Shown here piece by piece: positions 34,865 to 43,482 of a DNA stretch of 64,000 nt. Each line of letters starts with the position of its first letter. Position 1 is the first letter of the stretch. Source of the stretch: Dictyostelium discoideum (taxonomy: Eukaryota); the NCBI GenBank assembly GCA_000004695.1, contig CM000151.3, positions 5,024,001-5,088,000 of the forward strand, given 5' to 3'. Position numbers and translations under genes: made by a program. The notes under the pieces are model-generated. The model saw nothing but the letters and a program-made list of their open reading frames with translations, was not told where the DNA came from and ran no database searches.

Positions 34865-35482
34865 TTAAGTTTTAATATTGGCTTTTTCAATATTTGATAA
34901 AATAAATTGTTTATCTATTCCTTTTTTACCGCTATACCCAATAACCTTACCATTTGAAGAAATAATACGGTGACAGGGAACTAGCAAAAGGAAAATATTT
35001 AATCGGCAGCTAGTCGCAATTGCACGAGCATATTTCTTATCAAGTCCTAATTGAGTAGCAACTGATGAATAAGATAAAGTTGAACCATATGGTATGGTTC
35101 TAAGATGAGTCCAAACTTTTCTTTGAAATTCAGTACCCAATTCTAAATTTATAGGAGTTTTAAATTCTTGTAGTTTTCCATTAAAATACTGATCTAATTC
35201 TTGATTAATTTGTAAAATAATTTTATTATTTGTTTTATTTTTACATTCTTCATCTAAATTTTTACTTTCGTATAATCTTATACCATGTAATGATTTATCA
35301 TCTGCTGTTATCTTTAATGCTCCAATTGGTGATTTTAAAATAAAAGAATTAATTATTTTTATTTCTTCTTCTTTTTCTTCTTTTTCTTCTTTTTCAATTT
35401 TTAATTTTTTATTATTATCATCATCATCATCATCATTATTATTATTATTATTTTCAATTGATTTTCTTATTTTATTATTCAT
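34865..35482 (-). CDS. mgmt: O6-methylguanine-DNA methyltransferase (MGMT/Ogt), single exon.
   Basis: The active-site motif 'LLLVPCHRIISSNGKVIGYSG' (PCHR) and the upstream helix-turn-helix block 'TEFQRKVWTHLRTIPYGSTLSYSSVATQLG' are both present. The N-terminus has an acidic, lysine-rich low-complexity extension. Confidence 0.8.
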   Translation of the reverse strand: MNNKIRKSIENNNNNNDDDDDDNNKKLKIEKEEKEEKEEEIKIINSFILKSPIGALKITADDKSLHGIRLYESKNLDEECKNKTNNKIILQINQELDQYFNGKLQEFKTPINLELGTEFQRKVWTHLRTIPYGSTLSYSSVATQLGLDKKYARAIATSCRLNIFLLLVPCHRIISSNGKVIGYSGKKGIDKQFILSNIEKANIKT

Positions 35483-36013
35483 TTTTAATTTATTTTATTT
35501 TATTTTATTTTTTTTTTTGGTTGTGTGTTAAAAAATTCATTTTGTAAAAAGGTGAGAAAAAAAAAAAAAAGTAAAAAAAAAAAAAAAAAAAAAAAATAAA
35601 AGACAAAATATTATTTAATACTTAGAAATCCATGGTTGGAACTGACCGTTGGAAAAATCAAAAAAAAAAAAAAAATAAAATTAAAAAAAAAAAAATTAAA
35701 AATAATTTAATTTAAAAAAAAAAAACGTGATTCGCTTGATTTTTTGAATCATTGTTTTTTTCTTTTTTTTTTTTTTTTTTATTTTTTTTTATTTTTTTTT
35801 CCCTAAAGATATTTTCTATTTTTATTTCTATTTTCTATCTTTTTTTTTTTTTTTAAATTTTTCTCTTTCAAAAAAAAAGGTAAAAAAAATTTTAGTAATA
35901 CTACTTGTATGTAGTAATAAAATTTTAAAAATTTCCAAGTAAAAAAAAAAAAAAAAAAATAAGAATTTAAAAATAGAAATTTTAAAAAAAGGGGTATTTT
36001 TAAATTGAAAAAA

Positions 36014-38269
36014 ATGATACCAACACAAACACCCCCAAGACAACAAATGATGAATCATAATCATCAACCACAACAAATACAACAACCACAACAAATACAA
36101 CCACATCAACCACAACAACAACAACCACATCAATTTAGACCATTGGATGAAAATGCAGAAATTCCATTTTTACAAATTGTAACACCAAATCAAATGATTA
36201 AATTACCACCAATGTTTCAAGAACAATATAAACAATTATTAAATAGATGGTCAAATCAATGTATTAAAAAATCTGGATTATTATATACTCAAGCAGTACC
36301 ATATAATCAAGTTTTGGTATTATTAGAAATTGCTAAAAATGGTGATATTCAAGAATATAGAGATTTCATTCAAGTAATTATTGAGTCAAATCAAAATAAA
36401 GATGGTGATGAAAATGAAGAATCAATTCAACAACAACAACAACAACAACAATTAACATTAAAATCAATAATAAATTTAATAGATTTAGAAGGTAATACAT
36501 CAATTCATTATGCAATTATGAGAAAGAATAAAGCAATGGTTAGTTATTTAATTGATTGTGGTGCAAATTTAGATATTCAAAATTTAGAGGAAGGTCATAC
36601 ACCATTACATTGGGCATGTATTAAAGCAGATTCATCATTTGTGTTACAATTGGTTGAAAATGGTGCAGATATTCATTTGACTGATAAGAGGGGTTACAAT
36701 GCATTACTTCATGCTGCACAATATAATGAAGTGAATTCAGTGCGTTATTTAATTGAGAAAGGATTGGACCCAGTGCAATGCAAAGACATTCAATTACATA
36801 CTGCAGTGCATTGGACCTCGTTTCAAGGTCATGCAAATATGGCACGTTATTTCATAAGTTTAGGCGTTGACCCAAATGCACAAGACATTCAAGGCAGAAC
36901 GGCATTCCATTGGGGTTGTATCAAAGGTCACAAACAAGTGGTCAGCATGTTATGTTCATTCGAAGGTCAAGATAGTATAGATAAAACCATTCGTGATAAT
37001 GATGGTAAGACAGCCTACCAATTGGCAGAATCAAAGGAACATTATGAAATCATCGATTATTTAGACACAAAGCTTAAAGATGATAAATTATTTGGCGGCA
37101 ATGAGAGACTCTATCATAGATTTTGGACAGTGATGGGTGTGTTGACAGTATTGGTGCCAACCTGGATTCTATGCTATGTGCCAGTGATATTTGGGTTACC
37201 ATTGTTGGCTGTCGGTGGCTACTTTTTAAAGAATTATTTACACTTAAATTATTGGGTACCAGAGAGAAACAATTGGTTATTACCCTCGATTTTATATTCT
37301 TCAGTATCTATTTGGTATTTGATTTATTTACTTAGAATTGCACCATTGGTAATGGCAATTAACATTTTCCCAAATTTAATAATTAATGCAACCTCGTGGT
37401 ACTTTTTCTACTTTTTCATTCGTTTAACAAAGGAAGATCCAGGCACAATTTCTAAACATATCTCTAAAGAGAAATCAAATGAAAACTTTATGAATGCTCT
37501 CTCAAGTGGTCGTCAAATCCCTTTGATTTGTCCAACCTGTTTAATTAATCGTCCAATTCGTTCAAAACATTGTCCATCTTGTAAAGGTTGTTTTGCACGT
37601 TTTGATCATCATTGTGTTTGGATTAATAAATGTATTGGTATCAATAACCAAGCTTTATTCATCACTGTACTCTTCTCATATGTTATCTTGGTAATTTCTG
37701 GTTTCATTGTAACTTGGGATTACTTTAAATCTGATTCAAATGCTCCAATACTATCTGAAAGTTATATTCAATCATTTTTATTCTACTATACCAATTACCC
37801 CTTTATTTTATTATTCTCAATCTATGGTATTGGTATGGCTATTTGGATTGGTAAATTAGCAATCTCACAAGTTTTAACAATTTTATTCAATAAAACTACT
37901 TATGAACAAATTCAACAAATTAGAGAATTTGAAAGTAGACAAGGTCATGGTCATAGTCACGGTGGTGATCAACAATGTAATCATAGTCATGGTAGTGGTG
38001 GTGGTGATCATGGTCATAGCCATGGTGGTAGTTCTGGTAGTGGTAGTGGTAGTGGTAGTGGTGATCATGGTCATAGTCATGGTGGTCAACCTTCACTTCC
38101 ATCTTCAAGTGGTGGAAGTAAAAAAGATTCTGATAAATCATTCCATAATCAACAAACTAATTTTGATATGTATCATCGTGGTGTTGTAAATAATGTTAAA
38201 GAATTTTTATTCGATTCTCAAAAATTCTATTTCCAAACTGAAAATATTTATGCTGATTCAAGAGTTTAG
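36014..38269 (+). CDS. Ankyrin-repeat DHHC-type palmitoyltransferase (Akr1/ZDHHC17-like), single exon in this window.
   Basis: There are at least 5 ankyrin repeats ('[28 protein letters not shown]', '[13 protein letters not shown]...', 'GYNALLHAA', '[13 protein letters not shown]', '[13 protein letters not shown]'). The DHHC-CRD '[37 protein letters not shown]' follows, then multiple TM segments and a C-terminal (HGHSHGG)n His-Gly repeat. The ATG at 36014 is preferred over the track's TTG at 36005. Confidence 0.85.
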
Positions 38270-38454: not shown

Positions 38455-39879
38455 TTATTCCCATAATGGTGGTTGTTGTAATTTCTTTAAAGCAGTATTG
38501 ACCCAAGCAGAAATGGTTTGATATCTAGTGCAAAATAATACATTTCCAGAGACAGATTGTTGAGAGTTTGGTTGTTTTTTGATGATAGCACAAAGTTCAC
38601 CACAGTGTAAGTTAAAGATGAGACCTCCTTTACAAACACCCGGATCACCTGACAATGAAATTTCTAATGTATCATCATTGAAATGGGATATATGACCATA
38701 GTAGAGTGATGGTTCTGGTGGTACAACTGTTGAAAAGTTTTTATGATCACTTGGTGATACCATTGGTAAACGAGTGTATGGAAATGAACAACATATAACA
38801 TCTTTTAATAATTCATATCCCTTGGTTGCTATTGGATAGGTTTCAACGGTGAATTTATCTTGTAAATCTTTGATTTGCAATAAGGCACAATCAGTATTTG
38901 ATTCTTCTGTTGATGAAACATCTAAAATCGTTGATTTAAACCATTGACCATCAAATCCAACTTCAATCAATGTCGATCCACCCTCCTTTATACCATTCAT
39001 TAAATGTGATGATGTAAGTATTAAATCTCTACCAACTCTTAAACCACTACCAAAAACAAGGTCATGTTTTATCATATATTTCTTTTTTAAAATTCTAATA
39101 ATTGCAACTCTATTTACAATATCTTTTTTTAATTCTAAAATTTTAAAAAAAATATTAGTAAGTTAACAAAATTAATTTTGAAATTATATTTTTCTAAACT
39201 TACTTTGTTTTGATAAAATTTCAACTTTTTCTTTTAAATCATCATATAATAATGAAGCGAATGCTCTATCATGTTTACTTTCTCCTGCATATGATTTAAA
39301 TGTATCTTTTGATTTTGAAATTTCTAATAATGAGACACCATTTCTATTTTCAAAATCAGATGTATCTGAATCTTTATCATTTTGAGTACCAATTGATTTT
39401 TTACATTGAATCCATTGTTTAGTATTTTCAGTTGACCAATCAATTATTGGTATTCTTTGAAATTCATGTTCTTGAAATTCTTGTTGTTGTTGTTTAGATT
39501 CATTTTCATTACTTTTACTCGAAGATGATTGATTTTGTTCATCATTTTCATCTTTGTCAAGATTATCTTGTTCATCTTGATCACCTTCTGGTTTATCATG
39601 ATGGTTTTGGTTAATTTCAACAACTGATGAATGTTCTTCACTTTTCTTTACTTCACTCTTTTCTTCACTCCTTTCAGATTTGTGTCTATCTTCACTCTTT
39701 TCATGTTGTTCTGGAGATTTATTATGATTGTCTTTGTTTCTATGTTCTTCTTTATTATTATTATCATTGTTTTTATTAAGATCATCTTTTAATAATTTAT
39801 CTTTTTTAATTTCATTTTCATCGTTTTTTGAATGGTGATGATGTTGATGATGATGATGTTGATCTTGTCCTGTATCCAT
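38455..39879 (-). CDS. Chymotrypsin-fold (trypsin-like) peptidase-domain protein with a His-rich acidic N-terminal region, 2 exons: 39879..39204 and 39134..38455 on the minus strand.
   Basis: Exon 1 is 'MDTGQDQHHHHQHHHHS...' then an acidic K/E/D-rich region. Donor GTAAGT at 39203 (phase 1); acceptor ttttag at 39136-39135. Exon 2 has His in 'RDLILTSSHLM' (compare the trypsin TAAHC block), Asp in 'TDCALLQIKD' (compare DIALL), and 'GDPGVCKGGLIF' where trypsins have GDSGGP. Confidence 0.6.
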
Positions 39880-41611: not shown

Positions 41612-43482
41612 ATGAATTATTATTTTAATTTAGAATGTCCACATCATATGGAACAAATTTGTTATTTCTTTTGCTATACATGTAGAACTCAGTATTGTGG
41701 TCATTGTAGTTTTTCCGATAAACATCTAAAGAGTAAAGGACACAAAGTTGCTGATATAAAAGAAGAAGTAGAGAATTATTTTTTATTTTCAGGATACATT
41801 TTAGAAAATAGTAAAAAAATGAAATCAGATATAGAATCAATTCATAATGAAATTAAAAATTCAAATGATCTTATAAGAAAAGAATTATCAGAATTACAAG
41901 AAGAAGTAATAATGAAAATTAATGAAATTTTCAAAAAAAAGTATCAACAAATAAATGAATGTGATAAATCAAATGAAGATATTTTAAAAACATTTTTTGA
42001 AGAAATTGATAAGATTATTTCAAAACTAACTCAATTGAGACAAATGGGAATTAGAACAAATGAACAAGAGATAATTTCACAATTTGGAAATTATTATGAA
42101 GTATTTTCAAAAGAAAATAATTTATTAAAAAATCCTCATTTTTCAAAATGTGAAATTACAAAATTAAATGAAATTGAAATTTTAAATAATCCAATTTCAA
42201 TTGAAATTAAAAATTTTGAATATAAGGAAGAATGTATGTATTTATAAAATTTTAAAAAGTAATGATTTTAATAATAATAATTATAATAATTTATTAACCA
42301 AATTAAAAAAAAAAAAAAGTTTTAATGAAAAAACAATATTTATTATGTAATGAAGAAATTAAAAATGATACTGATATGGTTTTATTAGCAAAGAATGTTG
42401 ATACTTTAAATTTAAAAATCCCACCAGAAACAAAGTCAATTGCATATTTTGATGATAAAATACCATTTAATGGTGAACCAATAAAAAGTACAAAAATCGG
42501 AACTTTAAACTTTTTTTCAAATGCACCATCAATTTCGAAAGATACTATACCAAAAAATAATATTCATACACTTTATTTTTCATTTGGATATAATAAATTA
42601 ATTGAACCTGGTGTTATTCCAGAGAATATTAAGATTATTCATTTTGGTAATATAGAAAATAAGGTTTTAGTAGAAGGTTCAATTCCAAATACTGTAGAAA
42701 CAATTCATTTTCATGGTGAATTTAAATTAAAATTAGAGAAAAACATTATACCAAATAATGTTAAAACACTTCACTTTTATGATGTAAAGAATATTTTAAA
42801 AAAAGGTTCAATTCCAGAATTCGTAAACTCTGTTAATTTACATGACGGTTTTGAAAATGATTTTGATGATTTCCTTTCAAAAGGTTGTTCAATACTTTCA
42901 GTTCATAACATTACATCCCCATTACCAATAATGCATGAAGGAAAGGTTGATACCATCTTTTTCAATGATGGATATGATCACAAGATTGAAAAGAACCATA
43001 TTCCAAAAGGAGTAAAAACAATCCACTTTCATAATATTAATAAGCCATTAATTAAAGGTTCAATTCCAAAATCTGTTGAAACTATTATTTTAGAAAAAGG
43101 ATTTAACCAACCACTACCACCTTTTATAATTCCAAATAACGTAATTCGTATGGAGATTGGCGCAATTCAATCAAAATTAGAAAAAGGATCCTTACCAGAA
43201 TCAGTAGAAAACTTACAATTTAAAAAGGGATTCAACCAAATTATAACTAAAGATTTATTATTAAATAATAATAAATTGATTTCAGTTGAATTTAGTGATA
43301 TATTAAAAAGAATAGATTTAGATTCACTTCCTCCATCATTAAAAGAATTAAAGTTTGTTTCTAATTTTTCACACCCAAAAGATATAAAATATGTAACAGT
43401 ACCCCCAAAATTTGTTAAAGAATTTATAAACTCTGGTGTCCGTCCTGAAGTTATCAATCAATCTTTTTTTAATACATTGTAA
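41612..43482 (+). CDS. B-box zinc finger / coiled-coil / FNIP-repeat protein, 2 exons: 41612..42233 and 42320..43482.
   Basis: B-box 'CPHHMEQICYFFCYTCRTQYCGHCSFSDKH', then coiled-coil. Donor GTATGT at 42234 (phase 1) and acceptor a(14)g at 42318-42319 join the track's two ORFs as '...FEYKEE|F|LMKKQYLL...'. Exon 2 is classic Dictyostelium FNIP repeats ('IPNNVKTLHFYDVKN', 'IPKGVKTIHFHNINKP', 'IPKSVETIILEKGFNQPL', 'LPESVENLQFKKGFNQII'). Confidence 0.7.

Follow-up and report, generated by a model that had tools for sequence, protein, structure and literature searches.

On the minus strand of a 64,000-nucleotide stretch of the Dictyostelium discoideum genome (GenBank assembly GCA_000004695.1, contig CM000151.3, positions 5,024,001 to 5,088,000; here called the window) lies a small two-exon gene, DDB_G0275099, whose product resembles a chymotrypsin-like protease but carries a cysteine where the catalytic serine should be. 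A first-pass annotation, made from the letters of the window alone, had noticed the likeness and wavered between a rare cellular cysteine protease and a pseudoprotease. Comparison with relatives inclines us to the second. We lean towards the view that DDB_G0275099 is a fast-evolving, functional but probably non-catalytic paralogue of a serine-type protein, a pseudoprotease that would bind a ligand, and that its Cys would be a tolerated one-step replacement.

The gene is assembled from two minus-strand open reading frames (39184-39879 and 38455-39075) united by an intron of 69 nucleotides into a protein of 451 residues (Table 1). The ends given in the first-pass annotation are the start and stop codons, and the four strings it quoted (HHHHQHHHH, LILTSSHLM, DCALLQIKD and GDPGVCKGG) are all present. 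The product is identical at every residue to the D. discoideum AX4 entry XP_643765.1 / EAL69830.1, "hypothetical protein DDB_G0275099", and the corresponding UniProt entry, Q8T847, bears the automatic label "Peptidase S1 domain-containing protein". The position of the exon 1 donor (CAAA/GTAAGT) is kept at the D. citrinum and D. cf. discoideum loci. The window has a G+C content of about 12-33% per 2-kb segment, mostly about 20%. A literature search on the gene identifier found no paper mentioning the gene and no earlier description of it. The gene and its family are known in databases from automatic annotation only; the Cys at the nucleophile column, the loss of the site in an orthologue and the paralogy of the two lineages described below appear to be undescribed so far.

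Table 1. Features of DDB_G0275099, numbered along the window.
Feature	Position	Strand	Remarks
DDB_G0275099, whole gene	38455..39879	-	ATG at 39879, TAA stop 38457-38455, 451-residue product; from open reading frames, splice reconstruction and database identity
Exon 1	39204..39879	-	Residues 1-225 and first base of codon 226; splice reconstruction
Intron	39135..39203	-	69 nucleotides, phase 1, GTAAGT...TTTTAG; spliced product equals database protein
Exon 2	38455..39134	-	Residues 226-451 and stop; contains the entire protease-like domain
N-terminal low-complexity region	39454..39879	-	Residues 1-142; His run, then K/E/D/S/N/Q-rich segment
His run HHHHQHHHH	39832-39858	-	Residues 8-16
Divergent SAM_PNT-like region	39204..39453	-	Residues 143-226, starting DWSTENTKQWIQ; from BLASTP and hhalign to the paralogue
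Chymotrypsin-fold (HtrA/S1B-like) protease-homology domain	38458..39132	-	Residues 227-451; C-terminal helix and PPLWE tail at the end
His269 codon	39004..39006	-	Catalytic His column; LTSSHLM against SplA VTNKHIA and DegP VTNNHVI
Asp307 codon	38890..38892	-	Catalytic Asp column; TDCALLQI against SplA EDLAIVHV and DegP SDLAVIRI
Nucleophile block G388-D-P-G-V-C393-K-G-G396	38623..38649	-	Cys393 codon TGT at 38632-38634, on the catalytic Ser column

The protease-homology domain

The C-terminal domain is a clan PA chymotrypsin fold of the HtrA/V8 kind, of cellular and not viral ancestry. The Pfam profile Trypsin_2 (PF13365) aligns over its whole length (positions 1-144 of 144) with residues 254-409 at E 3e-6, the score of 28.5 bits lying marginally above the gathering cut-off of 27.6 bits. 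When a profile of the small family of homologues is compared with the PDB, the best matches are Staphylococcus aureus SplA (E 4.2e-6) and a DegP-like protease (E 1.7e-4), followed by SplC/SplE, glutamyl endopeptidases, exfoliative toxins and DegQ/DegS. The SplA and DegP-like alignments run through all three catalytic blocks. With the single sequence, phmmer found nothing relevant in the PDB, only chance matches to Fe-S subunits, and a scan against NCBIfam gave no meaningful match. Judged by the profile alignments, the protease-like character of the domain far exceeds chance, and the clan PA assignment of the first-pass annotation stands.

An AlphaFold2 model of the exon-2 domain built on a 10-sequence alignment (mean predicted local distance difference test, pLDDT, 82.9; predicted template-modelling score 0.85) shows two beta-barrels and a C-terminal helix, the double-barrel arrangement of the fold. 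A Foldseek search with this model ranks DegP/DegQ/DegS/HtrA1-3 best (E 7.5e-11 to 1e-8, template-modelling score 0.61-0.68), with the V8-type glutamyl endopeptidases close behind. A library of viral structures gave matches that were no better than the cellular ones, some picorna-like polyproteins among them. The full-length model (11 sequences, pLDDT 40.9) is poor, its N-terminal region being low-confidence coil, and was therefore not used for fold search.

Unlike the HtrA/DegP/DegS/Deg proteases (MEROPS S1C), with which it shares only about 15-21% identity, DDB_G0275099 has no PDZ domain detectable by Pfam; the protein ends 8 residues past the C-terminal helix. It further differs from them in having Cys for Ser and Lys for the Gly after the nucleophile, and in that its N-terminal partner is a SAM_PNT-like region and not a signal or transmembrane segment. 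The S1B enzymes (SplA/SplC/SplE, V8 glutamyl endopeptidase and the exfoliative toxins) are secreted bacterial proteins with a Ser nucleophile that are activated by N-terminal processing, whereas DDB_G0275099 is eukaryotic, looks intracellular, with no signal peptide seen in its sequence, and has Cys at the nucleophile column.

The nucleophile column in two lineages

Two of the three catalytic columns hold the expected residues. The Asp of TDCALL is invariant across the family alignment, and the His of TSSHLM aligns with those of SKHVV, GKHVL, AKHVL and VKHL in the homologues; together with the PDB alignments, this identifies the His and Asp blocks proposed at first pass as the catalytic columns. 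At the third, D-P-G-V-C-K-G-G-L-I-F aligns with E-P-G-Y-S-E-S-S-V-I-F, E-S-G-F-S-G-T-G-V-L-F, E-P-G-F-S-G-S-G-V-L-F and D-P-G-Y-S-G-S-A-L-V-F. The column of Cys393 is thus Ser (GYSES, GFSGTG, GFSGSG, GYSGSA) in every homologue but the D. purpureum orthologue, and it is the column of the catalytic Ser in SplA (Q-P-G-N-S-G-S-P-V) and DegP (N-P-G-N-S-G-G-A-L). The Pro-Gly is part of an S1B/S1C-style PGxSG block; Cys393 itself occupies the nucleophile column. The first-pass annotation had equated GDSGGP with GDPGVC, leaving the Cys beside the replaced Ser, a register that is off by three residues; its second suggestion, a G-x-C block with Cys as the nucleophile-column residue, is the one that the alignments bear out.

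The triad of an active S1 protease, His-Asp-Ser, is accordingly incomplete: His269 and Asp307 are in place and the Ser column reads Cys393. The surrounding block departs from G-x-S-G-G/S as well, for the oxyanion-hole Gly at -2 (Gly391) is retained and the residue at +1, where Gly is usual, is Lys394. SplA (GNSGS) and DegP (GNSGG) show that Gly in the PDB alignments, and to our knowledge a Gly after the nucleophile (GxSG or GxCG) is near-universal in active PA-clan enzymes. On alignment columns the protein does share with 3C-like enzymes a Cys at the nucleophile position and a His as general base, but its motif is G-V-C-K-G-G and not G-x-C-G-G/S. The loop just before Cys393 has a pLDDT of only about 71 in the exon-2 model. 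The Cys codon, TGT, is one transversion away from the Ser codon, TCT, of the D. purpureum member of the second lineage.

The family is small. With the exon-2 translation as query, an exhaustive search of 1.84 billion representatives (E up to 1e-3) returned six clusters only: the D. discoideum group, two D. purpureum proteins (P0006 and P0007), one from Synstelium polycarpum (P0010) and two environmental eukaryote-like ones (P0008 and P0009/P0011). A word-indexed homologue search reached no species below 92% identity, and its family-alignment version gave three proteins; as it missed known members, family size was taken from the exhaustive search. In the environmental sequences, from Logan/JGI contigs of 1.1-1.3 kb, the block is a canonical GFSG[ST]G; where SAM_PNT would stand, P0011 shows a Cys-rich N-terminus (CSEALCVNTPGVCGSCGLHCSSPSCPKH), so that outside dictyostelids the protease module is joined to different N-terminal domains.

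The Dictyostelium proteins fall into two lineages, which a neighbour-joining tree sets apart in 200 of 200 bootstraps each. Lineage A comprises DDB_G0275099 and its orthologues. Its D. purpureum member (P0006, DICPUDRAFT_147997) is 38% identical over the domain, and its neighbours mark it as the syntenic orthologue: the gene converges tail-to-tail on an ankyrin-DHHC gene, beyond which comes an MGMT-type gene. The window has this arrangement, and so do the loci of the lineage-A gene in D. citrinum and D. cf. discoideum. This orthologue keeps the His (with a one-residue indel) and the Asp, but its third block, after an insertion of three residues, reads N-E-F-E-N-K-S-R-V-I-F. The Cys column is Asn (AAT) and the Pro-Gly is gone, in DNA that is uninterrupted across the lost PGxS block. 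From D. firmibasis the homologue search returned no lineage-A orthologue, though a lineage-B protein of that species (P0017) is in the database; the gap could be gene loss or missed annotation.

Lineage B comprises P0007 (F0ZGY1) of D. purpureum, Q54I31 / XP_636440.1 of D. discoideum ("trypsin-like serine proteases family protein") and proteins of D. citrinum, D. cf. discoideum and D. firmibasis. Like DDB_G0275099, Q54I31 and its orthologues place the protease domain behind an N-terminal SAM_PNT or SAM_PNT-like region. They differ in that His-Asp-Ser is kept (SKHVV, TDLALL and PEPGYSES in the lineage-B proteins of four species), that all have a clear Pfam SAM_PNT domain (E 4.4e-8 in P0007), and that they evolve more slowly. 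A low-complexity insertion of about 100 residues (poly-S/N, acidic), absent from DDB_G0275099, separates the Asp strand from the second barrel in lineage B (P0007 at L002 10001-11449; P0013-P0019). From D. purpureum to D. discoideum, lineage B also has Glu where Gly would follow the catalytic Ser (GYSES), so that its activity, too, cannot be taken for granted. Within the domain, lineage A and its paralogue share about 28-30% identity. Identity between D. discoideum and D. purpureum, taken over an identical set of 208 columns, is 38% for lineage A against 58% for lineage B; by this measure lineage A evolves much faster.

Selection on the gene was gauged from the ratio of non-synonymous to synonymous substitution rates (dN/dS) between D. 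discoideum and D. citrinum, D. cf. discoideum and a second D. cf. discoideum assembly (dS 0.09-0.40). The ratio is 0.07-0.13 in the protease-like domain and 0.11-0.15 in the SAM-like region (residues 143-226). Strong purifying selection on the folded parts, with a dN/dS near 0.1 in the domain, argues that DDB_G0275099 is a functional gene. The TGT of Cys393 is identical in all four sequences, while the Gly and Pro codons around it differ synonymously. An error of sequencing or annotation at this codon is rejected, since TGT is read both here and in three independent assemblies from related strains and species. Conservation, however, extends over the whole domain, and the invariance of Cys393 therefore says nothing specific about catalysis. 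The conservation of the Cys among orthologues, which the first-pass annotation had proposed as a check, turns out to be partial: the residue is kept in D. citrinum and D. cf. discoideum, and in D. purpureum it is Asn and the block is lost.

The N-terminal half and neighbouring genes

Residues 143-226 begin with DWSTENTKQWIQ, which resembles the start of the SAM_PNT domain in lineage B (DWSIEDTKEWIN). BLASTP against the SAM_PNT of the paralogue gives E 2e-4, and hhalign a probability of 76% (E 2.2e-5), both covering no more than the first 40 or so residues of that domain (41 columns in hhalign). Pfam SAM_PNT (PF02198) itself does not match DDB_G0275099 at E up to 10. We read this region, from the partial match, as a putative degenerate remnant of SAM_PNT.

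The first 142 residues are another matter. The His run and the K/E/D/S region, which we take to be typical Dictyostelium low-complexity sequence, are conserved within the D. discoideum complex only. Constraint here is relaxed, with a dN/dS of 0.33-0.62 and many indels. The D. purpureum orthologue has no His run and no SAM-like part, only about 260 bp separating it from the upstream gene. The idea put forward at first pass that the His/acidic N-terminus binds metal or nucleic acid thus found no support.

Downstream, the convergent neighbour is an ankyrin-DHHC palmitoyltransferase gene (36005-38269, plus strand) whose stop lies 186 bp from that of DDB_G0275099; the C-terminus of its product repeats the His-Gly units GHGHSHGG / GDHGHSHGG and also has a (GS)n run. 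Beyond it is an open reading frame for an MGMT-type methyltransferase (DNA_binding_1, VPCHRII; 34865-35482, minus strand). The two served as synteny anchors across D. purpureum, D. citrinum and D. cf. discoideum. On the upstream side, a B-box-like zinc-finger open reading frame (41612-42247, plus strand) and a repeat-rich one, FNIP-repeat-like by eye (42325-43482, plus strand), stand between DDB_G0275099 and an ALG8-like gene. In D. citrinum no more than about 450 bp part the orthologue from an Alg6_Alg8 gene upstream of it, and in D. cf. discoideum the corresponding spot is taken by an Arf gene and one with FNIP repeats (Pfam FNIP) (loci compared: L003 3465-6001 and L005 2051-6001). Upstream gene content thus varies between very close species.

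Pseudoprotease or cysteine enzyme

In DDB_G0275099 the fold is kept, a catalytic residue is substituted and the substituted position is not conserved among orthologues, the combination by which pseudoproteases are recognized. Non-peptidase homologues of this kind are familiar in the S1 family (SMIPP-S, haptoglobin, HGF, protein Z, MamO). In the present case, unlike these, the change is confined to the nucleophile and puts a different potential nucleophile in its place; inactivity therefore has to be inferred and is not evident from the sequence. What tips the balance is that the nearest orthologue has lost the nucleophile site altogether, which makes a pseudoprotease likelier than a rare cellular cysteine protease. 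The choice that the first-pass annotation had left between the two is in this way narrowed by the orthologue comparison, to the disadvantage of the active enzyme. Lineage A survives without a nucleophile in D. purpureum, evolves faster than its sister and has lost the Gly at +1, and exchanging Ser and Cys as nucleophile is costly, typically more than 10^4-fold in kcat/KM (PMC4576821); taken together, these points make a pseudoprotease the most economical explanation.

The history would then run as follows. Lineages A and B would descend from an intracellular serine protease in which a chymotrypsin-fold domain of the HtrA/V8 kind followed a SAM_PNT-type interaction domain at the N-terminus. After the duplication, lineage A may have given up its dependence on peptide-bond hydrolysis, while its intact double-barrel cleft would bind a peptide or protein ligand. 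The SAM_PNT-like remnant and the disordered His/acidic tail may mediate contacts with partners, possibly including the lineage-B paralogue. Cys393 would be a tolerated substitute at a site freed from catalytic constraint rather than an evolved nucleophile.

Several observations sit less easily with a pseudoprotease. Every triad column holds a residue capable of the chemistry, and Gly391 still fills the oxyanion-hole position at -2. Neither Cys393 nor its neighbours differ among four independent assemblies that span a dS of about 0.34-0.40 and show synonymous changes in flanking codons, yet the whole domain is equally conserved. Since the paralogue lacks the +1 Gly (GYSES) while its triad is conserved, the family may be able to do without Gly at +1. 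Finally, the loss in D. purpureum could be independent of, and later than, a functional switch from Ser to Cys.

These observations lead to the chief alternative, an active cellular clan PA cysteine peptidase in which Cys393 is activated by His269/Asp307 after a recent Ser-to-Cys switch within an HtrA/S1B-like family. The Cys stands exactly on the catalytic Ser column and the His and Asp on theirs, Gly391 is in place, TCT and TGT are a single nucleotide apart, and the fold model is confident. The Cys also stays unchanged, under strong purifying selection, across D. discoideum, D. cf. discoideum and D. citrinum, and the ancestral Ser form would persist, as Q54I31, in the same genome. PA-clan scaffolds have, moreover, been made nucleophile-permissive by directed evolution (PMC4576821). 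Against this, the syntenic orthologue in D. purpureum lacks both the nucleophile and the Pro-Gly of the oxyanion loop, which argues that the conserved function of lineage A does not need catalysis. The much faster evolution of lineage A relative to B, the Lys at +1 in place of the near-universal Gly and the low model confidence of the loop preceding the Cys point the same way, as does the loss of more than 10^4-fold in activity that usually attends Ser/Cys swaps (PMC4576821). We regard an active cysteine peptidase as unlikely on balance; a working enzyme would imply that the switch was fixed before D. discoideum and D. citrinum split and that the D. purpureum orthologue is dead, a sequence of events to which we give only limited credence.

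Less probable still, and in our estimate improbable, is a non-proteolytic domain in which Cys393 has been recruited to another use, be it as a redox or electrophile sensor, as a partner of His269 in binding a metal (the case of the repurposed protease MamO) or as a covalent substrate trap. Homology juxtaposes the Cys and a His in a conserved cleft, and Cys is plentiful in the domain (7 in 225 residues). However, the Cys is absent from the D. purpureum orthologue, and residue identity is the sole basis for such a role.

As for the viral 3C-like kinship suggested at first pass, the clan PA cysteine peptidases that we know of (picornain 3C, C3; NIa/TEV, C4; coronavirus Mpro, C30) are all viral polyprotein enzymes with G-x-C-G-G/S, with which DDB_G0275099 has in common the chymotrypsin fold, the Cys on the nucleophile column and the His at the general-base column; it differs in being a cellular gene with G-V-C-K-G-G, and no specific sequence or structural affinity to them was found. 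Capture of a 3C-like protease gene from a picorna-like or other RNA virus is effectively refuted and can be dismissed: beyond a superficial G-x-C...G-G resemblance and the picorna-like polyproteins among viral fold matches that are no better than the cellular ones, nothing speaks for it, the closest sequences being serine-type homologues of dictyostelids and other eukaryotes and then bacterial SplA/V8 (S1B) and HtrA/DegP (S1C), and the gene having an intron, a host-like composition and conserved synteny.

In closing, the interest of the gene depends on which account holds. A plain pseudoprotease would add one further example to a common class and hold modest interest. Serine is the nucleophile reported for cellular PA-clan proteases, cysteine nucleophiles being found in viral families (PMC4576821), and an active Cys enzyme would therefore be notable; a search of the literature on non-viral chymotrypsin-fold cysteine proteases found no direct precedent. 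A chromosomal eukaryotic His-Asp-Cys gene of the HtrA/V8 kind would be either a counter-example or a snapshot of protease decay by way of a chemically "near-miss" residue. Were the enzyme active, one small clade that lends itself to genetics would show the Ser, Cys and lost-nucleophile states together. The architecture of SAM_PNT followed by a trypsin-like domain is itself uncharacterised, and it suggests an intracellular pair, of proteases or pseudoproteases, recruited through SAM-type interactions.

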